Shown here: positions 1 to 26,364 of the stretch, one piece after another
How positions within the stretch are numbered: the stretch's first letter is position 1
How the letters are laid out: each line of letters begins with the position of its first letter
DNA from: Candidatus Saccharimonadota bacterium
GTDB lineage: Archaea; Nanohalarchaeota; Nanosalinia; Nanosalinales; Nanosalinaceae
Direction of reading: 5' to 3'
Assembly: GCF_047555085.1 (NCBI RefSeq)
Contig: NZ_CP180230.1
Location: forward strand, 300,001 to 332,000
DNA: 32,000 bases
Made by a program: the position numbers and the translations under genes
Notes under the pieces: model-generated
The model's database searches: none
The model's input: the letters and a program-made list of their open reading frames with translations, nothing else
What the model was told of the DNA's origin: nothing

Positions 1-1522
1 TTTAGATACTAAAGATACTTTAGTTGCTCTGGAATTTCTCGCTCTATTCTACAATAGTCAAAAAGAGCTTATAAGAAAAATTATAGTTTCCGAAAACAAA
101 GAGCTATTCGTTAAGTCCCTCAAGATGTTTGATGAACATAATAGTAAGCTAGATCGAATCAAATCGGATATTAATTTCCGAGATATTTCGGATAACTCCG
201 AACCTCAAAAAGAAGATTCTGATATACTCGATAAGATAGATGATCTAAATCAAGAATTGGAAGAAACTCCTTTTGGGGTAGGTGCCTGGGTGTTTAGAGA
301 ATATGAGAACGGTAATCTTGACGAAGATTTCTTTAATAATGTAAGAGAGGAGGTAATAGGGAAATTTGAAAACAAATCTATCGGCGAAATCTCTAGTATC
401 TACTTTGAAATTCTAGAAAGCACTCCCTCTTACTGGAATAGTTGGCAAATGTCAGAGGAATTAGATGTTTTTGAAGGCGCAACTTCCATGGGAAGCCCTG
501 CTGCAGTTTCATGGATTCAAAATTTCTACTGCGGTCTAATGATTAGGAATATTAGCGACGATAAAATAGAGGAAATCTTAGAAAGAGAAGAAGAGTTCTC
601 AAATCCGATATCAGTAAGAAAATCAATCAAAGATAATATTGAAAGTCTCAAAGAACAAACTCAGAATTTTTCAACAGAAGAATCTCTAATGAGAGATATA
701 GAGGATATCCGGTCAAGAAAAGAAGCAGTAAGCAAAATTTTCGAAAATATTAAATCTGAGATAGAGACGGACGAAAGACAGGAAATAATCAATTCAGAAG
801 TGTCCGACTCTTTGGTTTCTGAGTTCAAAACAGGGCTTAGAGATAGTTGGGAGTCAAATGCTGATTTCAGGAAACTCTATAATGACTTGGGCAGATTTGA
901 AGAAAATTCATCAGAAGCTCCTGAAGAAGCTAGAGAGCTAGGGCTGAACAGAGTTTTCTACCGCAGTTATTTTGTGGAAGATTCTCCCAGAAACTGGGTT
1001 AGAAATGTAGATGATAACTGGGGTAGAGCTATAGCAAAAAAGGAAAATGAAGTGATTTTTGAGGAACTATTCGGCTCTATTGAGTTCCAGAAAATTTCAT
1101 GGGAAGAAATAGATTCCAGAATGTTAGATGCTGATATAAGCGGATTTGAGGATTCTCAGCCAATAATGCTTGTAGGAAATAGCCCTCGACTAAAATATAG
1201 AGCTAAAAATATAGAGAGATTAGAAATCAATGAAGAGAAAGGAAAATATCTCTATAACAACAAAGAAGTACCTATATACCATATCAACCATCTTAGAGAT
1301 AAATTAATAATCACAACCGCAGAGAGACTAGGAAGACTTCTCCAGTATTCAGAAGGAGAAAATCTATCAATAGAATTTAGTGAAAATATTCCTTCAGATG
1401 TCTCTAAAAACTTGGAATTAGAAGATCCCGAAACTAGAGTCTTGATTAAAGCATCAGAATCCTTTGAGGTTAAAGAAATACAGCAGGATAGTTCAACCAT
1501 CAGTTATGAAATCCAGGAATAA
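1..1522 (+). CDS. Hypothetical acidic protein, 5' end outside the window. The frame is open from nt 2, so the ORF-track Met at 125 is probably internal.
   Basis: There is no stop codon in this frame between nt 2 and 1522. The 465+ aa product is very D/E/N/S-rich, and I recognise no family motif. The DNA is clearly more AT-rich than the rest of the window and has no AGGCCT copy. Confidence 0.6.
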   Translation, partial: LDTKDTLVALEFLALFYNSQKELIRKIIVSENKELFVKSLKMFDEHNSKLDRIKSDINFRDISDNSEPQKEDSDILDKIDDLNQELEETPFGVGAWVFREYENGNLDEDFFNNVREEVIGKFENKSIGEISSIYFEILESTPSYWNSWQMSEELDVFEGATSMGSPAAVSWIQNFYCGLMIRNISDDKIEEILEREEEFSNPISVRKSIKDNIESLKEQTQNFSTEESLMRDIEDIRSRKEAVSKIFENIKSEIETDERQEIINSEVSDSLVSEFKTGLRDSWESNADFRKLYNDLGRFEENSSEAPEEARELGLNRVFYRSYFVEDSPRNWVRNVDDNWGRAIAKKENEVIFEELFGSIEFQKISWEEIDSRMLDADISGFEDSQPIMLVGNSPRLKYRAKNIERLEINEEKGKYLYNNKEVPIYHINHLRDKLIITTAERLGRLLQYSEGENLSIEFSENIPSDVSKNLELEDPETRVLIKASESFEVKEIQQDSSTISYEIQE

Positions 1523-7927: not shown

Positions 7928-8329
7928 TTATCCGTCCTGGCTTTTCAGCATCAAGTATCCAAGCACTAGCGTAGATATTACTCCGAGTAGAGGCCTCAAG
8001 GGATCGACATATGCCATTATTGCTGATGTTGACAGGAATGCAAGCAGTAAGCCATTGCAGATCGGACAGCTGAATGCGAGGAATCCTGTGACTCCGCCTA
8101 GCGCTGAAAGCCTTGAATCAGTTACAGTGCATTTTTCTTTGCCGAAGTAGATCCCTGCCAGGATTGAAGTCGTGAACAGGAAAGTATAGTCCAGAAATGT
8201 GATTGGTACCATCCTGACGTAGAAAGGAGTCGGTATGAGGCCTGTAACTACGCCCGTAACTGTGAAGAAAAATGTAGAGGCGGCTACAGACTTTTTCACG
8301 TCATAGCCCTTTACTTCTTCAATTTTCAT
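7928..8329 (-). CDS. Membrane protein with an intramembrane CxxC (FSCPICNG), paralogous to the upstream gene
   Basis: 133 aa with about 4 TM. It shares the block LG-x3-GFLA-x2-C-x2-C-x4-L with the 176-aa neighbour. It is the third gene of the DsbA-like operon, with a 16-nt gap. Confidence 0.6.
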   Translation of the reverse strand: MKIEEVKGYDVKKSVAASTFFFTVTGVVTGLIPTPFYVRMVPITFLDYTFLFTTSILAGIYFGKEKCTVTDSRLSALGGVTGFLAFSCPICNGLLLAFLSTSAIMAYVDPLRPLLGVISTLVLGYLMLKSQDG

Positions 8330-8345
8330 AATGAGATGTTCTTTT

Positions 8346-8876
8346 CTATATTTTGCATGTATCAGGATCCCCGTTACGGACTATCAGCGCCGCCAGGATG
8401 GATATGCCGGCTAGACGAAATATGTTGCCTCCGAAAGGCATAGAGGCCAGTACTCCTCCGAAGCCGAGGAGGCTTAATACTCCCAGTCCGCATGATGCGC
8501 ATCCACCTGCCAAGAATCCCGGTAAAGCACCAAGACTGCTCAGATCCATCCTGTTCATACGTAACTGGATGACTGTATTCGTCATCGTTACGCCGACCAT
8601 GAAAGCGAATACAAGAGTCAGGAAGAGGCCTGTGTATCCTGATTCCATAAATATGCCGGAAAGACGTGTGATGAATGCTATCGGCCAGTGCTGTAGGCCT
8701 GAACTCAGCATCTGGAAGGAGTAGACAGGCCTTGTGGAGAAGATCACCAGTGAAAAAGTTATTACTGTCCCCAGCAACGTACCTGTAGCTCTGGATCTGC
8801 TGGAGACTGCGCCTTTGATTCCCTGGAAGAATTCCTGTTTCCAGGCCTTGGGACTGATTTTTACTTCAACTGTCAC
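8346..8876 (-). CDS. Membrane protein with an intramembrane CxxC (GGCASCGLG), paralogous to the downstream gene
   Basis: 176 aa with multiple TM helices. The GTG start lies 6 nt after the DsbA-like stop. It carries the motif LGALPGFLAGGCASCGLGVLSLLGF. Confidence 0.6.
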   Translation of the reverse strand: MTVEVKISPKAWKQEFFQGIKGAVSSRSRATGTLLGTVITFSLVIFSTRPVYSFQMLSSGLQHWPIAFITRLSGIFMESGYTGLFLTLVFAFMVGVTMTNTVIQLRMNRMDLSSLGALPGFLAGGCASCGLGVLSLLGFGGVLASMPFGGNIFRLAGISILAALIVRNGDPDTCKI

Positions 8877-8882
8877 AGGTCT

Positions 8883-9701
8883 TCACTGGCTTTTTATCGT
8901 GTTGATTGCCTGTTCGAATCTTGAGATCGGCTGTGCTCCTGATATCTCGACGAAGCCTGTCTCTTTGTTCCCTACGAAGAATGCAGGGGTTCCCAGCCTT
9001 CCAAGATTTCTGAGTGCGTTGCTTTTGTCCTGATCTGCCTCGGAGTTGTTCGAGTTCTGGTAACACTCCATAACTTTGTCGGTGTCAAGGCCTAGATCAT
9101 CGGAAATACCTCTGAACGTCTCTTCTGGCCCCGGACTGCCTCCCTGCATCCAGCTGTCTCTTCTCTCGAAGATTTCATCGTGGAAGTCCCAGTAACTTTC
9201 TTCCTCGTTCTCGTAGACACAGTTCGCCACTTTATGAGCCTCAGGCCCGTTAGGATGAAGATTTGGAACAGGATAATCCTTCATGATGAACTCTACTTCA
9301 CCGGTATCCACGTACTGGTTTTTGAGAGAGTCACCGATATTCATCTGATCTATAGGAATCCTTCCGGAAGCATCAATGCCCTGCCATTCCGCACAGAAAG
9401 GACATCCAAAGTCTGTGTACTCCACTACCTTTATCGGAGCATCACTTTCCCCCATACTTGGCTCGCCTTCAAGCTCGATACCGTCAAGACTCACTAACTC
9501 AGTGCCTGAATCATCTGAACTATCTGAACCGTCACCGGAGTTAGTATTCTGTGAGTCAGGAGAATCCTGGGCATCAGAAGTGCTTAGAGCAGTTCCGGCA
9601 GCCAGGCCTCCAAGCCCTCCGATCAAAAGTCCAAGTACAAGAGAAGCCACAGCCGCCTGCTTCACAGTGAACTCCAGCTTCAGGCCTTCAGAATCACTCA
9701 T
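8883..9701 (-). CDS. Membrane-anchored DsbA/thioredoxin-fold thiol:disulfide oxidoreductase
   Basis: It has an N-terminal TM anchor (AAVASLVLGLLIGGLGGLAAG), then a D/S-rich linker, then a Trx fold with FGCPFCAEW (CPFC) and a GTPAFFV cis-Pro-type block. Confidence 0.75.
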   Translation of the reverse strand: MSDSEGLKLEFTVKQAAVASLVLGLLIGGLGGLAAGTALSTSDAQDSPDSQNTNSGDGSDSSDDSGTELVSLDGIELEGEPSMGESDAPIKVVEYTDFGCPFCAEWQGIDASGRIPIDQMNIGDSLKNQYVDTGEVEFIMKDYPVPNLHPNGPEAHKVANCVYENEEESYWDFHDEIFERRDSWMQGGSPGPEETFRGISDDLGLDTDKVMECYQNSNNSEADQDKSNALRNLGRLGTPAFFVGNKETGFVEISGAQPISRFEQAINTIKSQ

Positions 9702-9853
9702 TGAGATCCCTCTTGAAGGCCTGTTCTCTGATTTTGGAAAAGTAGTGCAGGTGAATTCTCAAGAACATTTGATTTCATATAGATACAAGGTATCCATACG
9801 ATATTAAAGGCCTGAGTGTAATCTCTGAAACATGGTTTCGAGGTCGATACCAC

Positions 9854-10228
9854 ATGTCTGAAAAGGAGGATAAGATTCCGGTATGGTGTAAAAGCGAGGA
9901 CTGGTGTGCACTGAAATCTACTTCAAAGATTCTGGGTCATAAATGGGTGCCGGTCATCACTTATCACATCCACGACAACACTCCAGCAAGATTTTCCGAG
10001 ATAAAACAGGAGATAGGTGATATAACGAATAAGACTCTGAGCAATAACCTGGACAGGATGGAGGAACAGGGCGTAGTGGACAGAAAAGTTGAGAAAGAAA
10101 AACCTGTCAAGATAACTTATGAGCTTACTGATTTTGGCGAAAGCCTGATCCCGCTTGTTGAAGACATGATTTCATGGGGACAGGAAAATCTGAGGGAGGG
10201 AGAAAAGGAAGAGGCCTGGATAACTTGA
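9854..10228 (+). CDS. HxlR-family winged-helix transcriptional regulator
   Basis: The stretch CALKSTSKILGHKWVPVITYHI...RFSEIKQEIGDITNKTLSNNLDRMEEQGVVDRKV...ITYELTDFG is the typical HxlR/DUF24 layout. Confidence 0.8.
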   Translation: MSEKEDKIPVWCKSEDWCALKSTSKILGHKWVPVITYHIHDNTPARFSEIKQEIGDITNKTLSNNLDRMEEQGVVDRKVEKEKPVKITYELTDFGESLIPLVEDMISWGQENLREGEKEEAWIT

Positions 10229-10273: not shown

Positions 10274-10498
10274 ATGGAAGAAAATGTAGGAGATACGGAC
10301 AGGATTGTAAGGATCGTGCTTGGAGCAGTAGCCGGATTACTATCACTTGGTACGCTGGCTGATGTACTGCCTTCCAGTCTGGCGTTGCCTGAGATCGCAT
10401 CGCCGATCCTTGGAGTCCTAGCGATCGCACTGCTGGGAACAGCATTCACAAGCAAGTGCGGGCTATACTCTGCACTAGGCCTCAATACCAAAGAATAG
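10274..10498 (+). CDS. DUF2892 / YgaP-like small membrane protein
   Basis: 74 aa. It has an N-terminal D-R-I-V-R-I-V-L-G stretch, two TM helices, and a C-terminal conserved Cys context (FTSKCGLYSALGLNT). Confidence 0.5.
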   Translation: MEENVGDTDRIVRIVLGAVAGLLSLGTLADVLPSSLALPEIASPILGVLAIALLGTAFTSKCGLYSALGLNTKE

Positions 10499-10575
10499 GC
10501 CTCCACAATTTCTTTTTTCCAATTTTTTGAGAAAATATCGATCAAAAAGAAGAAATTCGGGATTTTTCCAGCTTT

Positions 10576-10830
10576 TTAGTTGATTTCCAGGCCTTCGTTC
10601 TGACTGTCTTTCGCCCACTCCACTTCGATCTCGATCGAGATATCTCCATCTGATTCTTCTTCGACTTCTATCTCGAACTCTACACGTTCAGAAGGCGTTA
10701 ACTCGATACTATCTTCTCCGGCCTTGAGTTCAACTTTGCCGTCTCCGATCTTGTCCGCCAGTTCATGGATTTTCTCCGCTGCCTCCTCTCTTCCCATCAT
10801 ACTTTCCGTACGCAGAAGTTTTCGTGACAT
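10576..10830 (-). CDS. Amphi-Trp-domain-like small acidic protein
   Basis: 84 aa. The pattern REEAAEKIHELADKI...GKVELKAG...IELTP...VEFEIEVEEE...ISIEIEVEW resembles the amphi-Trp domain. Recognised by eye only. Confidence 0.45.
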   Translation of the reverse strand: MSRKLLRTESMMGREEAAEKIHELADKIGDGKVELKAGEDSIELTPSERVEFEIEVEEESDGDISIEIEVEWAKDSQNEGLEIN

Positions 10831-10913
10831 AATCCAAATAGAGCCCTCAAGAGACTTATCTCTTTCGATCAGAGGCCTTATTTGAGAAAAAAGAGAAAAA
10901 GAAGAGAGAATTT

Positions 10914-11099
10914 TTATCCTGAAAGGAATCTATCGTAGAATTTTTCAGGAGGGCAGAACCCTGTAAAGGAACTCTGTAAGAGATTGAGGCCTGCGAACAG
11001 CGTTATCAGGTAGAAGTATTCATGGATGAGCCATCCCCCCATAAAAGCTGCTGTTATCACGAGGCCTGCGAATCTGCGTACGAACTGTTTCTTCTTCAC
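10914..11099 (-). CDS. DUF2892 / YgaP-like small membrane protein
   Basis: 61 aa. The stretch GLNLLQSSFTGFCPPEKFY matches the DUF2892 N-x-x-Q-x-x-x-T-G-x-C-P signature. Its GTG start overlaps the upstream stop (GTGA). Confidence 0.5.
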   Translation of the reverse strand: MKKKQFVRRFAGLVITAAFMGGWLIHEYFYLITLFAGLNLLQSSFTGFCPPEKFYDRFLSG

Positions 11100-12394
11100 T
11101 CGAGATCACCTCCGTCTTCTTTTCCTTCAGATTTTCCGGATCTGTAACGGTAGAGGAATGTGCTTATGAGGATTAAGGCTGCGAGGCCTCCGATGTAGAT
11201 CAGTGGGGACTGTGTTCTTCCTTTTAATTCCACTTCCGTCTGCTCTGTGAAGGTGTATACTGAATGATCGCCTTCCTCACTGTCTCCGTTCGCACGGAAC
11301 TGTAACTTGATGTTGTGGGTCTTCAGGGCTGCAGCTCTGTCAGATGAGATAGTCATCACTGCTTCGCCTGTTTCACCTGATTCTATCTCGCCTATGTAGT
11401 TCGAGCGATCCTCCAGCGTGAATGGCTGAGTTCTCTCTGCGAGTACACGGGCTGTCACCGATTCTGCGTCCTGCTCCCCGTTGTTTTCCACGGCGATCCT
11501 GAGCTCTGATGTCGCTCCAGCCTTCATCTCCATGTCTGAGTTAACGATCTCAAGATCAGGCCTCCCCTCAACTCTAAGCGGTATATCCATGTCTTCCGTG
11601 TAACTGTTCCCGGATTCGTCCTCGTAAGTCCCAGAAAGAGTTACAGTATGGAGACCTGGCTCTATATCCTCCTCAAGATTAAAGGAGACTGTTTTCCCTA
11701 CTGAATCTCCCTCTACAAGCTTGTTGATGTAGAATTTTTCATCGCTGGAGTAAGAAGGCTGTATGCCTTCAGGAGCCGAAGGCCTGATATCGATATCCTC
11801 TAAAGGCTTGTTCCCAGTGTTCGTGAATCTTACACGGGTTTCAACGTAGTCATCTCCAGGCCTTGGAACAGAAGGTTCTGTCGAGACGACGTTGCTGGAG
11901 AGATCGACTCCTTCATTGTCTACAGGCATAGAGAAATCCCTGATAACTGTGAAGTTGTACTCTCCTGTTTCCGTCTGAATCTCAACAGGTTCACCGTCCT
12001 CAAGATACCGGATATGTAGCTCGAAGTCGTACATTCCTGTAGGTGCGCCTGAATCCACTTTGACCTGGTAGCGCTGGTTCCATACGCCGTTCGGATACAG
12101 GAAGCCTAATGACTGATCTCTATCGTCCTCTATAGTGACGTACTCTCTGGTTAAACGGTTCCCCGGCTTCAGCACGACTTCAAGTTTCTTGTCTTCATCC
12201 CATGTTCTGTCGGGGAAATCTGCCTCGTGCATATTAGCAGAGATATTTACTCTGTCGCCTGCCGATATGAAGCCTGGATCAAAACTTACGCCGTCAAGTT
12301 TAGGCGCAGATGAGGCTGCACCTATCGAAACTGCAAGGATTGAAATAGCTAATGCGAATTTAAACGTCGTTGAATGTGTTGTTGTTCGTTTCAT
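11096..12394 (-). CDS. Secreted surface protein with a C-terminal TM anchor (COG1361-like, S-layer-domain type)
   Basis: The ATG at 12394 gives the signal peptide MKRTTTHSTTFKFALAISILAVSIGAASS. The body is beta-rich and repetitive, and the C-terminus has a TM helix (LIYIGGLAALILISTFLY) and a charged tail. It lies directly downstream of the RND-type exporter genes, a pairing common in archaea. Confidence 0.5.
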   Translation of the reverse strand: MKRTTTHSTTFKFALAISILAVSIGAASSAPKLDGVSFDPGFISAGDRVNISANMHEADFPDRTWDEDKKLEVVLKPGNRLTREYVTIEDDRDQSLGFLYPNGVWNQRYQVKVDSGAPTGMYDFELHIRYLEDGEPVEIQTETGEYNFTVIRDFSMPVDNEGVDLSSNVVSTEPSVPRPGDDYVETRVRFTNTGNKPLEDIDIRPSAPEGIQPSYSSDEKFYINKLVEGDSVGKTVSFNLEEDIEPGLHTVTLSGTYEDESGNSYTEDMDIPLRVEGRPDLEIVNSDMEMKAGATSELRIAVENNGEQDAESVTARVLAERTQPFTLEDRSNYIGEIESGETGEAVMTISSDRAAALKTHNIKLQFRANGDSEEGDHSVYTFTEQTEVELKGRTQSPLIYIGGLAALILISTFLYRYRSGKSEGKEDGGDLE

Positions 12395-12404
12395 AGTATC
12401 ATTT

Positions 12405-13514
12405 TTATACAATTGATTCTTTGCCATCGAAGATGATTATCAGGGTTGGAAGCAGGAACACTGCGCCGATATAGGCCGATATAATCCCTGTAAACAGGAA
12501 GATTCCAAGTGCGTGCATACCTGTGAGATTGGCGGCGAGTAAGGCAAGAAATCCGACGCCTGTAGTCATTGAACCGCCCAGGAGGCCTCTTGAAAGCTCT
12601 GTCATTGTCTCGGAGAGGCCTTCTGCTCCCCTTCTCGTGTTGAAGTATTTTTTCGTGACGTGGATCCCGAAATCGATGCCGAGGCCCATTATCATCGCAG
12701 CAGACACCATCGAAATTATCGTGAGGTTTGCTCCAAGGTAGCCTCCGAGGCCCAGCATCCATACAAGGCCGAACATAACAGGTACGATAGGATACATCAT
12801 CCTCTTGATGTCACGGAACACCAGGAAGAGTACGCCGAGAACTGCCGCGAAAGAGACAGCTGTTATCGTCATGAAATCTGAGATAATCACCTGGAAAGTC
12901 GCCAGATCGATCATATTGTATCCTGTCAGATAGTAGTCCTCCGTTGTCTCTGCCTGTACTGTTGTGTGTATGTCGTTGTACAGTTCCCGTATCTCATCTG
13001 AGTTCGCCTGTGTATCAGATCTTACGGCTATGAGGCCTGTCCTGTAGTTCTCAGACACTGTGCTCCTGTAGTTGAACTCCTCTAATCTGTCTCTGTCATC
13101 CGGTATCTGTCCGTATCTCTGGATCAGCATCGAGGCCGGTGACTCTGTCGAATGCACGTTTTCAGATCTCTGAACTCTGTTCTCTATACGATGCATTTCC
13201 TCCAGTAGCTCAGTATTTCTTATGTCTCGATCGGCCTCGAAAACGATGTACGTGGTATCGCCCGAGAACTTCGCCCTCAAGGTGTCAAGTGATTCAACAG
13301 TGGAATCGTCCTCTGGCAGGATGGCCTCTGTACTCGGCTTGACCTCAAGATTTAGAGCGCCGGGAAGTACAACTGCTGTAAGCAGACCCATAATGATCAG
13401 AACTTTCTTTGGATCTTCAACTTGGTATCCAACCAGTCTGGATGCAAGCTCCTCGATTATCACGCTATTAACCTCCGGGCCATCAGAAGTCGTGCCTCCA
13501 GTTGATCGATTCAT
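12405..13514 (-). CDS. RND/MMPL-superfamily exporter, C-terminal half (extracytoplasmic domain plus about 6 TM)
   Basis: It has a TM helix, then a soluble domain, then a TM bundle with GLGIDFGIH, the counterpart of GIGIDYSVH in the upstream half. The likely ATG at 13514 (MNRSTGG...) overlaps the upstream ORF by 32 nt in a different frame. Confidence 0.7.
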   Translation of the reverse strand: MNRSTGGTTSDGPEVNSVIIEELASRLVGYQVEDPKKVLIIMGLLTAVVLPGALNLEVKPSTEAILPEDDSTVESLDTLRAKFSGDTTYIVFEADRDIRNTELLEEMHRIENRVQRSENVHSTESPASMLIQRYGQIPDDRDRLEEFNYRSTVSENYRTGLIAVRSDTQANSDEIRELYNDIHTTVQAETTEDYYLTGYNMIDLATFQVIISDFMTITAVSFAAVLGVLFLVFRDIKRMMYPIVPVMFGLVWMLGLGGYLGANLTIISMVSAAMIMGLGIDFGIHVTKKYFNTRRGAEGLSETMTELSRGLLGGSMTTGVGFLALLAANLTGMHALGIFLFTGIISAYIGAVFLLPTLIIIFDGKESIV

Positions 13515-14550
13515 GGATTTTCTGCATAGTTTTCTCCTCAAGGACAAAAACGCTCGGAAGCAAAAAGAAACTGAAAAGCAAAGCATAGCCTATACCTATC
13601 GACATTATAAGGCCGAAACGATGCATCTCAGGCATCATACCGGAAAGAAACGCCATAAAAGCGCTGATAGTAGTTACAGAAGTTGCTATGATCGCAACAC
13701 CTGTCTCACCGACTGCCTCAGACAGGGCCTCTCCGATAGTATTTTCTCTGCGGTGGAACCTGTAAGTATTCAGTATATGCACGGAGTAATCGATCCCGAT
13801 TCCTATAACGAGAGCTGCAACGCTTCCGGCCAGTGTAGAAAGCGGGATGCCCAGATAGCCCATCGTTCCGTAAAGCCAGACTACTGAAAGGCCTACAACG
13901 ATCAGAGGCATCAATGCAGATGAGAAACTTCCCTGGAAAAGCCCAAGAGTTATCAGGAAAACAAGACCTAGCGAAATCATAGTTGTAACATTTTTATCGC
14001 GGGAAACCATGGAAGAAAGGCGCTGCTGGACTGCAGGAACTCCCGAGATCTCCGTCTCTACCCCTTCAGGCCTCTCGAAACCTGCCTCTGTCTGTATCTC
14101 ATTGAATATCCTGTCCATCTCGCCTCCGGAGTCTCCGACAAACGTGTACGCCGTTATGACTGCGTTCTGATTTCTTTCGTCCACGAGGCCTTCTCTCTGG
14201 AGTGGAGACATCACCTGCGTCACTCCGTGTATCGACCTGATATCATTCGAAAGATCTTCGATGTAGGCCTCTGTCCTGTTATCGTGGATTGACTGGACGC
14301 CTTCCTCTGTACGGCCCGTGGAAATCTTCACGGCTATGGAATCTTTCCCGAGGCCTTCAGCTCTCAGGTCGTTGAATCCCTCGACAGGAGTCGAAGATGA
14401 AGGCATCATGTTTTCAAGAGCTACAATAGTCTCAACTCTCGCCATCCCCGGTATCATCGCAACAGATAGGAAAAGAAACAGCAGAACAACTTCTACGGCA
14501 TGATCTTCCTGGAATTCTGTGAGTTTCTCCAGCCATTTACTCTGTTGCAT
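13483..14550 (-). CDS. RND/MMPL-superfamily exporter, N-terminal half
   Basis: 355 aa with the same architecture as the downstream half. The GIGIDYSVHILN block is typical of COG1033-type exporters, which are normally one polypeptide of about 700-800 aa. Confidence 0.7.
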   Translation of the reverse strand: MQQSKWLEKLTEFQEDHAVEVVLLFLFLSVAMIPGMARVETIVALENMMPSSSTPVEGFNDLRAEGLGKDSIAVKISTGRTEEGVQSIHDNRTEAYIEDLSNDIRSIHGVTQVMSPLQREGLVDERNQNAVITAYTFVGDSGGEMDRIFNEIQTEAGFERPEGVETEISGVPAVQQRLSSMVSRDKNVTTMISLGLVFLITLGLFQGSFSSALMPLIVVGLSVVWLYGTMGYLGIPLSTLAGSVAALVIGIGIDYSVHILNTYRFHRRENTIGEALSEAVGETGVAIIATSVTTISAFMAFLSGMMPEMHRFGLIMSIGIGYALLFSFFLLPSVFVLEEKTMQKIHESINWRHDF

Positions 14551-15329: not shown

Positions 15330-17003
15330 ATGGAATTAGAAGAGATAGCTCGGAAATACGCTTTGAGGAACGCTGTTGAACACGGCGGCGAATGCAACCC
15401 TGGTGCAGTAATAGGAAAAATTTTCGCTGAAGAAGAATTTGAAAATAAAGGCGAAGTCACGCAAAAAGCCCAGGAAGTATGCAGGGAAGTCAACGAGCTA
15501 TCTCTGGAGGAGCAGGAATCAGAGCTCGAAAACTATGAATTCGATATACCTGAGAAAGAAGAGCACGATCCGATTCCGGATCTTGACGTTGACGAAGAAG
15601 AGGAAGTAGTTGTAAGATTTGCTCCGAACCCTAACGGCCCGCCACACATCGGCCACGCGAGAGGTATGACGATAAACGGAGAGCTACGGGACAAGTATGA
15701 TGGAAAACTAATTTTGAGGTACGATGATACCGATCCTGTGACTAAAAGGCCTATGAAGGAGGCCTACGAGATGTACAGAGAGGACTACGAGTGGCTTGGC
15801 TACGAACCGGATGAAGTAAGATATTCTTCGAAAAACTTTGATACTTACATAGAGTACGCTGAGAAACTGATTGAAATGGGTGAGGCCTATGTCTCCAAGG
15901 CTTCTCAGGAGGAGATGCAGAAGCATCGTAGAGAAGGAACCGCATCCAAGTACCGGGATCAGAGCCCGGAGAGAAACATGAAGTTATGGAACAAGATGCG
16001 GAACGGAGAACTGGATGAGGGAGAGGCCGTTCTGAAGGTAAAAACTGACTTGGACCACAAGAATCCAGCTGTCAGAGACTTCGTCGCTTTCAGAATCATC
16101 GATGAGCCAGATCATCCTATTACAGGTGACGAGTACCGTGTCTGGCCGCTGCTTGATTTCCAGGGAGCGATCGAAGACCACGTCATGGGTACGACGCACA
16201 TCGTCCGTGGGAAAGATCTGCGAGCGTCTACAAAGAGGCAGAAATACATCTACGACTACCTAGGCTGGGAGTACCCGGATATCATGTACTGGGGTAACGT
16301 CCAGATCTCCGGCTTCGACGCACCGGTCTCCGGCTCCACGATCTCGAAGATGATCGACGAGGGAGAACTCGATGGCTGGGACGATCCACGAGCTCCAACC
16401 CTCCGGGCGCTGAAGAGAAGAGGCTTCCAGCCGGAAGCACTTCAGGAATTCTTCATAGAGATGGGAGTAACAGAAAACGACATCGAGGCCTCGATCGAAG
16501 GCCTTGAGAAAGCTAATACACGTGAAGTCGACGATGAAGCGGATCGCTACTTCTTTGTCGCCCAGCCTGAGAAGCTTAAGATTGCAGGCCTCCCGGAAGA
16601 TCTCGAGGCAGATATGCAGGTGCATCCCGAGCATCCTGAGAGAGGAACAAGAAGTCCGGAGCTTGAAATCGAAGACGGCGAGCTGGAAATTTTCATAGAC
16701 GAGGACGACTTCCAAGACGGGTTCTACAGATTGAAAGGCCTCTGCAACATCGAAATTGAAGGAGATTCGGCAGAGTACAGGGAAGGAGATCACAAAGTAG
16801 CACTTGAAAAAGACGCTGACTTCATCCACTGGACACCTAGCTACGCGGACACAGCAACTGTTAAGATGCCGGATGGAAGAGATATAGAAGGCAGGATCGA
16901 GCCGAACAGTATTGAAGAAGGTGAAATAGTGCAGTTCGAAAGATTTGGATTTGTCCGATGTGATTCAGAAGAGGAAAAAGTCTTTTACTACGCGCATAAC
17001 TAG
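15330..17003 (+). CDS. gltX: Glutamyl-tRNA synthetase, archaeal type
   Basis: It has the HIGH motif (PPHIGHARG), the class-I core (LRYDDTDP, HIVRGKDL) and the archaeal/eukaryal-type C-terminal anticodon-binding region. Confidence 0.95.
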   Translation: MELEEIARKYALRNAVEHGGECNPGAVIGKIFAEEEFENKGEVTQKAQEVCREVNELSLEEQESELENYEFDIPEKEEHDPIPDLDVDEEEEVVVRFAPNPNGPPHIGHARGMTINGELRDKYDGKLILRYDDTDPVTKRPMKEAYEMYREDYEWLGYEPDEVRYSSKNFDTYIEYAEKLIEMGEAYVSKASQEEMQKHRREGTASKYRDQSPERNMKLWNKMRNGELDEGEAVLKVKTDLDHKNPAVRDFVAFRIIDEPDHPITGDEYRVWPLLDFQGAIEDHVMGTTHIVRGKDLRASTKRQKYIYDYLGWEYPDIMYWGNVQISGFDAPVSGSTISKMIDEGELDGWDDPRAPTLRALKRRGFQPEALQEFFIEMGVTENDIEASIEGLEKANTREVDDEADRYFFVAQPEKLKIAGLPEDLEADMQVHPEHPERGTRSPELEIEDGELEIFIDEDDFQDGFYRLKGLCNIEIEGDSAEYREGDHKVALEKDADFIHWTPSYADTATVKMPDGRDIEGRIEPNSIEEGEIVQFERFGFVRCDSEEEKVFYYAHN

Positions 17004-17152
17004 CTGAAGGCCTGGAAAAAGTTTCTGAATTTTTCAGGAGGCCTCAGCAAGTTTTTCAATTCTTTTTTCTCCTGTTTTGTTGAGGCCTGTTACATCAATC
17101 TATTTTATACTGGATATGTATGACTATCATCCTTTGGGAGGGGTCTGATAAC

Positions 17153-17299
17153 TTGAACTTGATCTCGCATCGACTTGGAAACTGCGTTGTCTGCGGCGAA
17201 AGAATCTACTCTGATAAAGAATACGTAAGATCGTCTGACGGATTCTGCTGTAAAGAATGCCTTAGAGAAGATAAAAGTGAAGCCGTCGCTGCAGCCTGA
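17153..17299 (+). CDS. Small Cys-rich zinc-finger protein (TRASH-like C-x2-C-x17-C-x3-C); not in the supplied ORF track
   Basis: I read this ORF manually. It has a TTG start 9 nt after a GGAGGGG Shine-Dalgarno-like run and translates to (M)NLISHRLGNCVVCGERIYSDKEYVRSSDGFCCKECLREDKSEAVAAA. The competing antisense ORF 17105..17314 has an implausible composition. Confidence 0.4.
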   Translation: MNLISHRLGNCVVCGERIYSDKEYVRSSDGFCCKECLREDKSEAVAAA

Positions 17300-17518
17300 A
17301 ATCCACAAATCCAATTTTTTCTTCTTTTTTAGAAGTTCAAAAATAAGTTTGAAAGGTTAGGGCAGTTAAAGGGAAAATTTGGGATCGAATTTTTACTGCC
17401 TGAAATAAAAAACTTCAGATAAAGAATAGGACGGTAATTTACCACGTTTAATTTTGTAATAATTGGTGTCATATTAAATAGATTTAAAAGATTTGTTTTA
17501 GAATGGTTAGATGTTAAT

Positions 17519-17908
17519 ATGAGCCTGGAAGATAAGATACGTAATGAACTTGTGAAAGAAGATCCAAAATACCTTGAAGAGCATCTTCAGGACGCGAAAA
17601 AAATATTCTCTTTAACAGATTCTGGAGATATTAACATAGAAGTGAATAATCCTTCTCAGAAGGACAGAATTTTAATACATTTTATAGGTTTGAAATATGC
17701 TCATGAAGGCGGTATGAGAGACAGCTGTAGCCAACACTACAAGGATCTTTGTGGAGAACTAGGTCTGAATCAAAGCTCAGCTAGAGTGGCATTAAGCAAC
17801 TGGAAATCAAAAGGATTTATCAAACAGCCAGATACCGGGGTATATGAACTTGATGCAAGTTCTCTAGGTGAGATAATAGAGTTCATGGAGGACAAATATG
17901 AGAAATGA
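17519..17908 (+). CDS. Hypothetical protein with a possible C-terminal winged-helix, inside the AT-rich islet
   Basis: 129 aa. The stretch SSARVALSNWKSKGFIKQPDTGVYEL looks like a recognition helix plus wing. It sits in AT-rich DNA with no AGGCCT. Confidence 0.5.
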   Translation: MSLEDKIRNELVKEDPKYLEEHLQDAKKIFSLTDSGDINIEVNNPSQKDRILIHFIGLKYAHEGGMRDSCSQHYKDLCGELGLNQSSARVALSNWKSKGFIKQPDTGVYELDASSLGEIIEFMEDKYEK

Positions 17909-18068
17909 TATTAGCATAGATGCGACTGAGGTGCACATACATAATTCGAGCGAGGAAACGAAAAAACAAGAAGAGGAACACGAAGAAACTGCAGAAGATT
18001 ATTTAAACACTCTGACTGCCACTATAGGTTTATCGGCTCTAAGAGAAATATTTGGTAAGTTGCTATGA
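17898..18068 (+). CDS. Small hypothetical ORF (56 aa) overlapping the previous stop; not in the ORF track
   Basis: I read this ORF manually as MRNDISIDATEVHIHNSSEETKKQEEEHEETAEDYLNTLTATIGLSALREIFGKLL. Its ATG overlaps the upstream stop (ATGAGAAATGA). It ends 5 nt from the 3' end of tRNA-Met. Confidence 0.3.
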   Translation: MRNDISIDATEVHIHNSSEETKKQEEEHEETAEDYLNTLTATIGLSALREIFGKLL

Positions 18069-18072
18069 GTGA

Positions 18073-18228
18073 TGGGAAAGCCGGGAATCGAACCCGGGAC
18101 CTCTGCGTATCTCACATTCCAGAAAATTTGTTTTAATCATTGGAACTTGCCTATTCTGGATCAGCAAGTTCCTCATCGCTCATAAAGTTGTTATGAGCGC
18201 AGCGCTCTAACCCCTGAGCTACTTTCCC
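18073..18228 (-). tRNA. tRNA-Met/Ile2 (anticodon CAU; elongator-type) with an ~83-nt intron at the canonical 37/38 position
   Basis: The minus-strand fold is GGGAAAG-TA-GCTC-AGGGGTTA-GAGC-G-CTGCG-CTCATA[intron]A-CGCAG-AGGTC-CCGGG-TTCGATT-CCCGG-CTTTCCC-A. The intron spans about 18109-18191 and contains TTATGAGCG, which is complementary to the anticodon region, as expected for a bulge-helix-bulge splice motif. No CCA is encoded. Confidence 0.85.
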
Positions 18229-18358: not shown

Positions 18359-18433
18359 TGGGTTCGCCCAGATTTGAACTGGGGATCTCCTCCACGTCAA
18401 GGAGGTGTCATAACCAAGCTAGACCACGAACCC
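18359..18433 (-). tRNA. tRNA-Val (anticodon GAC)
   Basis: The minus-strand fold is GGGTTCG-TG-GTCT-AGCTTGGTTAT-GAC(A)-CCTCC-TTGACGT-GGAGG-AGATC-CCCAG-TTCAAAT-CTGGG-CGAACCC-A. It forms a clean cloverleaf with no intron and no encoded CCA. Confidence 0.9.
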
Positions 18434-26245: not shown

Positions 26246-26364
26246 TACTGGCGACCACAGCGAGGGGGTTTTACACCCGTACCCATTCCGAACACGGAAG
26301 TTAAGTCCCTCAGCGATTTGACCGGTACTGCCTTTCGGCGGGAGAGTCAAGACGTTGCCGGTAC
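26246..26364 (+). rRNA. 5S ribosomal RNA, not adjacent to 16S/23S within this window
   Basis: Helix I forms between TACTGGCGAC (26246-26255) and GTTGCCGGTA (26354-26363). The conserved loop sequence CCCATTCCGAACACGGAAGTTAAG is present. A TATA box lies about 25 nt upstream and a T-run lies immediately downstream. Confidence 0.9.

Follow-up and report, generated by a model that had tools for sequence, protein, structure and literature searches.

The recycling of DsbA-like proteins without DsbB, VKOR or quinones is an unresolved problem that has been discussed for clostridia (PMC12453122). The question of which membrane protein could serve such a protein is raised again by an operon in a 32,000-nucleotide stretch of nanohaloarchaeal DNA (contig NZ_CP180230.1, positions 300,001 to 332,000), the whole of which is called the window below. 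Three minus-strand open reading frames (ORFs) encode a DsbA-like thiol:disulfide oxidoreductase (8883-9701, 272 aa), the predicted four-transmembrane (four-TM) protein memA (8346-8876, 176 aa) and memB (7928-8329, 133 aa), a four-TM member of a large unannotated family. Only 6 nt and 16 nt separate these ORFs from one another, and the GTG start of memA is consistent with the N-termini of its homologues. An earlier note on this DNA had placed these genes at exactly the same positions, and had proposed that the two membrane proteins form an undescribed heteromeric pair that re-oxidises or reduces the DsbA-like protein. According to our analysis, memA and memB probably constitute a MerT-derived cysteine ladder dedicated to the exported DsbA-like protein in halophilic and some other archaea, with a probability of roughly 0.75. 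Such a ladder would have three tiers, namely CPFC on the outer side, CxxC in the membrane and Cys in the cytoplasm, and memA, often together with memB, would act as the dedicated membrane partner of DsbA.

The top tier is readily recognised. The DsbA-like protein is a member of the DsbA-like/Thioredoxin_4 families (PF13462, PF01323), as its Pfam matches to Thioredoxin_4 (2e-21, 77.4 bits) and DSBA (1.2e-10, 42 bits) both exceeded the cut-offs. Its sequence combines a membrane anchor at the N-terminus with an acidic Ser/Asp linker, a C100-P-F-C103 active site (window 9393-9404) and a GTPAF cis-Pro loop. Among 39 orthologues the active site was CPFC in 35 and CPYC in four, and most of them had the GTPxF cis-Pro loop. 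A second Cys pair, probably structural, was conserved in the protein and its orthologues. An N-terminal twin-arginine (Tat) signal was present in about 21 of the 27 haloarchaeal orthologues, while the nanohaloarchaeal orthologues carried a TM anchor; these export signals predict an exported protein that uses one or the other. The nearest solved relatives were BdbD, the partner of BdbC (3eu3; 4.9e-11), a Wolbachia protein (3f4r) and Corynebacterium DsbA (4pwo). Two Halorubellus loci (L037, 5736-7109; L039, 6402-7208) formed a divergent clade with a CPYC active site, in which a second DsbA-like ORF was located downstream of memA, where memB would sit.

The middle and lower tiers are less familiar. 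As the earlier note had pointed out, each membrane protein has a CxxC in a hydrophobic helix plus one further Cys. In memA these are the invariant G-C126-A-S-C129-G (8490-8501) in TM3 and the invariant C174 (8355-8357). In memB, C88-P-I-C91 (8057-8068) lies in a broken TM3 that is followed by a D109-P-L-R-P113 turn, and the extra Cys is C67 (8129-8131). The CxxC was invariant in both families, and C174 was invariant within memA. The relatedness of the two proteins, also claimed earlier, was supported by BLASTP (E 8e-5, 33% identity over 81 aa) and by comparison of the memA and memB profiles with hhalign (E 5.5e-5). The memA profile aligned to the broad memB family with 89.3% probability (E 2.2e-6, score 42.0 vs. 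a shuffle maximum of 23.8), and C174 was paired with the C-terminal Cys of that family. Furthermore, a memA-like protein of the low-GC archaeal contig L073 matched both profiles (98.2% and 96.8%). These comparisons point to a real, distant paralogy of memA and memB.

The two families differ strongly in extent. At the sensitivity of a word-index search, homologues of memA fell into 104 clusters, all from Nanohaloarchaeota, and homologues of memB into 31 clusters. A pattern scan of GTDB genomes added 27 Halobacteria with memA, at 33-42% identity and in many cases on plasmids. For the memB family, an exhaustive hidden Markov model search returned 654 cluster representatives at E<=1e-3, and a profile search yielded at least 1,622 clusters from bacteria and archaea, including Actinobacteria, Chloroflexi and low-GC lineages. 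All were annotated as 'hypothetical', and a Pfam domain was found in none. Members of this broad family have four hydrophobic helices, a PxLIPNPxFxRM motif in loop 1, and GCPxCN(K) in helix 3 followed by (Y/F)x(E/D)PxRPxLG. A C-terminal Cys or CxxC was frequent, and the tails of many members contained a CxxC, CC or zinc-ribbon-like pattern. For memA and memB themselves no usable Pfam or NCBIfam match was found, and both are unnamed in PGAP ('hypothetical'), Pfam and NCBIfam.

The ancestry of this family nevertheless left a trace. When the broad memB family was compared by hhalign with a MerT alignment of six annotated plasmid genes, the probability was 94.7% (E 5.7e-8) with a score of 49.7 over 74 columns. 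A reversed alignment scored 23.0, and 120 column shuffles gave a mean of 12-14 and a maximum of 25.1. Because these controls remained far below the real score, a compositional artefact can be ruled out. The alignment paired S87-C88 of memB with T23-C24 of MerT, and D109-P-L-R-P113 of memB with E48-P-Y-R-P52 of MerT. It extended over the next helix, such that the C-terminal Cys of the family met the cytoplasmic Cys region of MerT. Scores against the family models of MerT (Pfam PF02411; NCBIfam NF010314 / NF033556) stayed below the curated thresholds. The window memB had only an NCBIfam MerTP match of 9.8 bits (E 0.55) and memA had none, while among 69 diverse broad-family members weak matches occurred to Pfam MerT in 13 and to NCBIfam MerT/MerTP in 18-25 (best E 1.9e-6). 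Three members that were inspected scored 16-19 bits, vs. curated MerT cut-offs of 150-180.

The sequence comparisons thus identify the memB family as a real but remote homologue of MerT, outside the curated MerT family. For memA alone, hhalign against MerT was not significant (3%), and its link to MerT is a transitive one that runs solely via the broad family. Both proteins are thus remote MerT relatives outside the curated family rather than an unrelated new fold, and their C-terminal two helices probably share an ancestor with the TM1-TM2 hairpin of MerT. The suggestion that the family is undescribed holds in so far as it is unnamed in Pfam, NCBIfam and PGAP, but not with respect to its ancestry. 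Likewise, the assignment to MerT-like metal transporters, which the earlier note had named as an outcome that would speak against its proposal, applies to homology and not to membership.

The memB family has counterparts of the Cys pair in the TM helix of MerT, of its (E/D)PxRP turn and the helix after it, and of the region around its cytoplasmic Cys. The MerT/MerP system of the Tn501/Tn21 mer operons also has three tiers of the same kind: a CxxC protein outside the cytoplasm, a Cys pair in the membrane and Cys on the cytoplasmic side. In contrast, MerT has three helices, whereas memA and memB are predicted to have four, including an added N-terminal hairpin with the conserved loop motif PxLIPNPxFxRM. 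Vicinal CC in TM1 of MerT corresponds to CxxC (CPxC or CASC) in the memA/memB family, and the C76/C82 loop pair of MerT to a single cytoplasmic Cys (C174, C67) or a C-terminal CxxC. The partners differ as well: MerT works with the HMA-fold MerP, whereas memA is associated with a Trx-fold DsbA-like protein. Finally, mer operons have merA and merR, but no mer genes (merR, merP, merA) were found in the window or among recurrent neighbours in 42 genome loci and 80 metagenome loci.

A ~85-aa two-TM protein was encoded directly after memB in many haloarchaeal clusters (L017 7000-7263, L018 7033-7296, L019 7012-7278, L027 6892-7206, L032 7008-7358 and others) and in 20 further metagenome loci (e.g. 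L116 4454-4714). Its TM1 contains an invariant 'LSLCCL(F/V)AxP', TM2 is usually followed by a Cys, and the protein has no Pfam family. By eye it appeared similar to the two-helix MerF, but hhalign detected no relationship with either MerT or the memA/memB family, and this candidate was rejected.

Where do the cysteines lie relative to the membrane? Under the positive-inside rule, alignments of memA, memB and the broad family all gave the same four-TM topology with both termini inside. The number of Lys and Arg residues per sequence was 9.8 inside vs. 2.4 outside for memA, 7.4 vs. 2.4 for memB and 5.6 vs. 2.2 for the broad family. This predicted topology agrees with the mapping of helices 3-4 onto TM1-TM2 of MerT, in which the loop after TM1-TM2 is cytoplasmic, and the orientation of the MerT hairpin is the same as that predicted for memA/memB. 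In the AlphaFold2 (AF2) model of memB, with a predicted local distance difference test (pLDDT) score of 80.6, TM3 is broken at residues 86-88, which places CPxC at the N-terminus of a half-helix. Both the positive-inside rule and the MerT mapping would thus put the CxxC within helix 3 and memA C174 and memB C67 on the cytoplasmic side. By the same prediction, there is no conserved outward-facing Cys in either the memA or the memB family, which is the pattern of MerT and the opposite of that of DsbB/VKOR.

This arrangement bears on the classical partners of DsbA. DsbB/BdbC and VKOR share with memA and memB a small size, several TM helices, a CxxC and a gene position beside a DsbA-like gene. However, no match to DsbB (PF02600), VKOR (PF07884) or CcdA/DsbD (PF02683) was found by Pfam in memA, memB or the 69 family members. 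PDB profile searches with memA, memB and the broad family likewise returned no DsbB, VKOR or CcdA, and for memA nothing at E<=10; matches to NDUFC2 in these searches were at chance level and were discarded. Foldseek found no PDB fold at E<=0.001 for the AF2 models of memA and memB, with DsbB, VKOR, CcdA and MerF absent from the matches, although the memA search rests on a model that is poor in the CxxC region.

The defining features differ as well. DsbB and VKOR have two outward-facing Cys pairs and bind quinone, whereas memA/memB lack conserved outward-facing Cys. DsbB is marked by a CxxC at the periplasmic end of TM1 with a loop pair, and VKOR by a four-TM core with a loop Cys pair, a conserved Ser/Thr and a CxxC at the luminal end of TM4; memA/memB have no such loop Cys pair. 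In CcdA/DsbD, one Cys is located on each of two PCxxP-type inverted-repeat helices in a core of 6-8 TM helices, whereas memA/memB carry both CxxC Cys on one helix of a four-TM protein. Judged by these features, memA and memB are not DsbB, VKOR or CcdA/DsbD, in agreement with the earlier note, which had not recognised them as any of these.

Another reading is a DsbB/VKOR-type oxidase that arose de novo, with memA/memB returning the DsbA-like protein to its oxidised state and delivering the electrons to quinone or another membrane acceptor. The DsbA-like protein is nearest to oxidase-type DsbAs (BdbD, actinobacterial DsbA) and has an apparent structural Cys pair of its own; the tight operon coupling is like that of bdbC-bdbD and dsbA-vkor; and menaquinone is present in haloarchaea. 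However, neither a conserved extracytoplasmic Cys pair nor sequence or fold similarity to DsbB/VKOR was found, the extra Cys is predicted to be cytoplasmic, and Nanohaloarchaeota, which lack respiratory complexes, offer no obvious electron sink. A TM CxxC combined with a cytoplasmic Cys and no outward-facing Cys argues against a DsbB/VKOR-type re-oxidant, and favours a relay in the style of MerT or CcdA. The re-oxidant option of the earlier note is therefore very improbable.

To examine the link with DsbA, we used the 42 loci with memA in GTDB genomes, 41 of which had upstream sequence (L025 was truncated). The DsbA-like gene was directly beside memA in 39 of these 41 loci, in two archaeal phyla (Nanohaloarchaeota and Halobacteria), and its ORF usually ended a few bases from the memA start or overlapped memA. 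The genuine exceptions without an adjacent DsbA were L011 and L014. By a six-frame search, memB adjoined memA in the window, in 5 of the 12 nanohaloarchaeal loci with room downstream and in 14 of the 27 haloarchaeal loci. Since memB was beside memA in only about half of the loci, DsbA and memA form the core of the system and memB is a frequent accessory; the heteromeric memA-memB pair proposed earlier is thus not obligatory.

A metagenome scan recovered the module many times over, mostly in halophiles, and also found the three-gene module in the low-GC non-halophilic archaeal contigs L073 and L081. In L081, a DsbA-like gene (CPFC) is followed by a divergent paralogue (VCPAC) and a family member (GCPICN...NCKICKI). 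In L073, a DsbA-like gene (CPFC) is followed by a memA-like gene (ACPSC...ICKVK), a DUF3105-like gene, a cytoplasmic HMA protein and a family member. Beside the L073 module, a 186-aa membrane protein (50-610, minus strand) with 'ACCLHH' in a TM helix had weak profile similarity to the family (27%) and no Pfam match. Our literature searches on haloarchaeal DsbA systems and on pairings of MerT-like proteins with DsbA found no such pairing. A selenoprotein preprint by Haft, to which an NCBIfam match to 'Rcas_1661 thioredoxin-like lipoprotein' had led, does not describe the system.

Conserved adjacency could in principle be coincidental, with memA/memB carrying a structural or metal-site CxxC and merely sharing an operon with a general-purpose DsbA. 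L011 and L014, and the bacterial family members that occur without an adjacent DsbA, would be in line with the absence of direct coupling. In contrast, both Nanohaloarchaeota and Halobacteria maintained the adjacency (39 of 41 loci), which was found in low-GC archaea too. It persisted despite 35-40% protein identity and otherwise unrelated neighbourhoods, and the matching CxxC chemistry in all three proteins argues against coincidence. We consider a chance association the least probable of all the explanations, and highly improbable. The linkage to a Trx-fold gene expected by the earlier note hence stands for archaeal memA, but does not extend to the wider bacterial family, which has copper-related neighbours instead.

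If memA and memB form a cysteine ladder for DsbA, what does the ladder carry? Tentatively, we rank first a ladder that carries reducing equivalents by thiol-disulfide exchange. A cytoplasmic thioredoxin (Trx) or glutaredoxin (Grx), with thioredoxin reductase (TrxR), would reduce the cytoplasmic Cys (memA C174, memB C67), which would exchange with the CxxC in TM3, which in turn would reduce the DsbA-like protein. The DsbA-like protein would thereby remain active outside the cytoplasm as a reductase or isomerase, with thiol-stress control of the HxlR type. In its logic such a relay would follow CcdA/DsbD or ScsB-ScsC, with MerT as the scaffold and no requirement for quinones. CcdA/DsbD and ScsB-ScsC relay electrons without quinone from cytoplasmic thioredoxin to an exported Trx-fold protein, which is the function proposed here for memA/memB, and ScsC is itself DsbA-like. 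memA/memB may be functional analogues of CcdA/DsbD.

This ranking is based on DsbA-adjacent precedents, nearby Trx, Grx and TrxR genes, the HxlR-type regulator and the loss of respiratory complexes. To our knowledge, every characterised polytopic protein with Cys that is encoded beside DsbA is a redox partner (DsbB, BdbC, VKOR, DsbI, ScsB, CcdA). A Grx gene together with a gene for an ArsR-type helix-turn-helix protein was found nearby in 8 nanohaloarchaeal loci, sometimes with a TrxR-like gene, and a cytoplasmic Trx gene was near the module in 8 haloarchaeal loci. In Ca. Nanohalobium, where the memA orthologue is LC1Nh_0813, all respiratory complexes are absent, whereas Trx, TrxR and peroxiredoxin are present (PMC7443923). 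A Trx-fed, quinone-independent route is the feasible redox direction in this lineage, because it lacks respiratory complexes; the same absence sets the host apart from those in which DsbB or VKOR would operate.

Several points weigh against the cysteine ladder or its redox cargo. The topology is a prediction, and the AF2 model of memA, with pLDDT <50 over residues 111-138, is unreliable at the CxxC that these residues span. Unless there is a cavity, a Trx-fold protein would have difficulty reaching a CxxC that lies mid-helix. The DsbA-like protein has its closest solved relatives among oxidases rather than CcmG/ResA-type reductases, the operon encodes no substrate for an extracytoplasmic reductase, and memB is dispensable in about half of the loci. 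Moreover, we know of no member of the MerT superfamily that relays electrons, and by homology soft-metal transfer is the default. Bacterial family members had an adjacent DsbA in 0 of 8 distinct contexts, 5 of which were instead copper-related, with a BlaI/CopY-type repressor and M48/M56 peptidase, YHS, DUF305, CsoR, cupredoxin or HMA-ATPase as neighbours. Within the archaea, the L073 module includes a cytoplasmic HMA metallochaperone.

These last observations speak for a soft-metal relay in the style of MerP/MerT. The CPFC of the DsbA-like protein would take the role of MerP and capture Cu(I), Hg(II), Cd(II) or similar ions, and pass them through the CxxC of memA/memB and the cytoplasmic Cys to cytoplasmic thiols or chaperones. 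Three elements are retained in the MerT homology (TM Cys pair, EPxRP turn and cytoplasmic Cys), and many family members have the Cys-rich or zinc-ribbon-like tails described above. A CPxC that sits in the membrane where a helix is broken is reminiscent of the CPx metal sites of P1B-type heavy-metal ATPases, in which a Cys-Pro-x(-Cys) at a proline-induced break forms a transmembrane soft-metal site. This likeness of memB is a motif analogy without homology, and the CASC of halophile memA lacks the proline. The Trx-fold proteins Sco and ScsC bind Cu(I).

However, genes for merA, merR, HMA proteins or metal efflux recurred in none of the 42 halophile loci, and the regulator is of the HxlR type and not MerR, ArsR or CsoR. 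Nanohaloarchaeota lack respiratory complexes and would thus have few evident uses for imported copper. Outside the cytoplasm, a CPFC is prone to oxidation, after which it could not bind metal unless kept reduced, and apart from the probable structural Cys pair the DsbA-like protein has no extra conserved metal ligands. We therefore regard a soft-metal relay as a close rival to the reductive relay, but in itself as rather unlikely.

A third possible cargo is sulfane sulfur, which would be passed as Cys-SSH from extracellular sulfur to cytoplasmic TusA/DsrE-type carriers or to detoxification. Haloarchaeal clusters lie in sulfur-trafficking islands with genes for Trx, DUF302, TusA, DsrE/DsrE_2, YeeE/YedE, an MBL-fold hydrolase and a CoADR-like flavoprotein, and Usp is a further haloarchaeal neighbour. 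Two YgaP-like TM (DUF2892) genes lie beside the nanohaloarchaeal operon, and the rhodanese YgaP has DUF2892 as its membrane domain. CsoR-family regulators, found near bacterial members, include persulfide sensors. Yet sulfur-type neighbours were present in a minority of loci (5-10 of 27), the core module lacks a rhodanese domain, and there is no precedent for persulfide transfer via a membrane Cys ladder or a DsbA-like protein. This makes sulfur an improbable cargo.

We class the system as a Cys relay of the Mer superfamily whose architecture and partner are both new. It is possible, although we hold this more tentatively than the reductive cargo as such, that memA and memB represent a third, quinone-independent class of DsbA membrane partner, which would have arisen when a MerT-type metal-relay scaffold was recruited for thiol-disulfide exchange. 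This class would follow DsbB and VKOR, which are oxidising, and stand alongside CcdA/DsbD, which is reducing.

The genes flanking the operon provide further context. An HxlR-family winged-helix regulator (9854-10228, plus strand, 124 aa) is divergently encoded, as the earlier note had reported, and is separated from the DsbA-like gene by an intergenic region (9702-9853) that presumably holds a shared promoter/operator. Its Pfam match (PF01638, 8.2e-25) scored 86.9 bits vs. a cut-off of 20.8, which places it in the HxlR family. It bears two N-terminal Cys (VWCKSEDWC) and has weak NCBIfam similarity to the redox regulators RrpA/RrpB. The divergent HxlR/DsbA arrangement was seen again in at least 9 nanohaloarchaeal loci. 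Beyond the regulator are the first YgaP-like TM/DUF2892 protein (10274-10498, plus strand; Pfam YgaP-like_TM 9.6e-17), an Amphi-Trp protein (10576-10830, minus strand; Pfam Amphi-Trp 4.8e-18) and the second YgaP-like TM protein (10914-11099, minus strand; Pfam YgaP-like_TM 1.2e-7), and such genes are typical nanohaloarchaeal neighbours of the operon. The block 10274-11099 was syntenic with the operon in L001, L006 and L008 and partially in others, but its membership of the DsbA/memA system is uncertain.

Near the bacterial family members, two gene arrangements stood out. In three actinobacterial loci (L043 3508-5453; L061 1751-4489; L062 2657-4489), genes for a BlaI/CopY-type repressor and then an M48/M56 membrane peptidase are located directly upstream of the family gene, except that in L061 a methyltransferase intervenes between peptidase and family gene. 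L043 and L062 also have YHS-guanylate cyclase, DUF305/DUF4142 and Lgt in the vicinity. The arrangement has the look of a copper-responsive module not described before. Furthermore, L046 (3053-3661) encodes a cupredoxin-YgaP_TM fusion near a bacterial family member.

Elsewhere in the window the context is that of an ordinary chromosome. The window encodes acidic proteins, whose nearest homologues are named Candidatus Nanohalobium and Nanohaloarchaea. A CARDB/NPCBM-assoc surface protein (11096-12427, minus strand) adjoins two MMPL-family ORFs (12405-13586, 393 aa, and 13483-14550, 355 aa, both minus strand) that overlap each other, and may represent either one RND/MMPL transporter that was split or frameshifted or two genes of half size. 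A full-length Rfam tRNA match over 156 nt (18073-18228, minus strand), uncalled by ARAGORN, is probably an intron-containing archaeal tRNA; it adjoins tRNA-Val(GAC) at 18359-18433 (minus strand). A 5S rRNA gene (26247-26363, plus strand; 63.7 bits) stands alone, with no 16S/23S rRNA match in the window. The GC content was 0.36-0.38 in positions 1-2000 and 17001-18000, vs. ~0.46 elsewhere, and ORFs in these low-GC stretches (125-1522, 1697-2419 and 17519-17908) had no Pfam match.

The results tie an exported DsbA almost invariably to one unannotated Cys-bearing membrane protein in a lineage without respiratory complexes, and thereby provide a concrete candidate for its partner. If memA and memB are indeed a third class of DsbA partner, they would account for the recycling of exported DsbA-like proteins in organisms that lack respiratory chains, Nanohaloarchaeota among them. 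In addition, an unannotated family of at least 1,622 clusters is now tied to the MerT superfamily, with motifs, a predicted topology and a copper-related context, from which the annotation of thousands of membrane proteins now labelled 'hypothetical' can start. Should electrons be the cargo of the relay, a single cysteine-ladder architecture would be shown to serve for the passage of either metal ions or reducing equivalents through a membrane.

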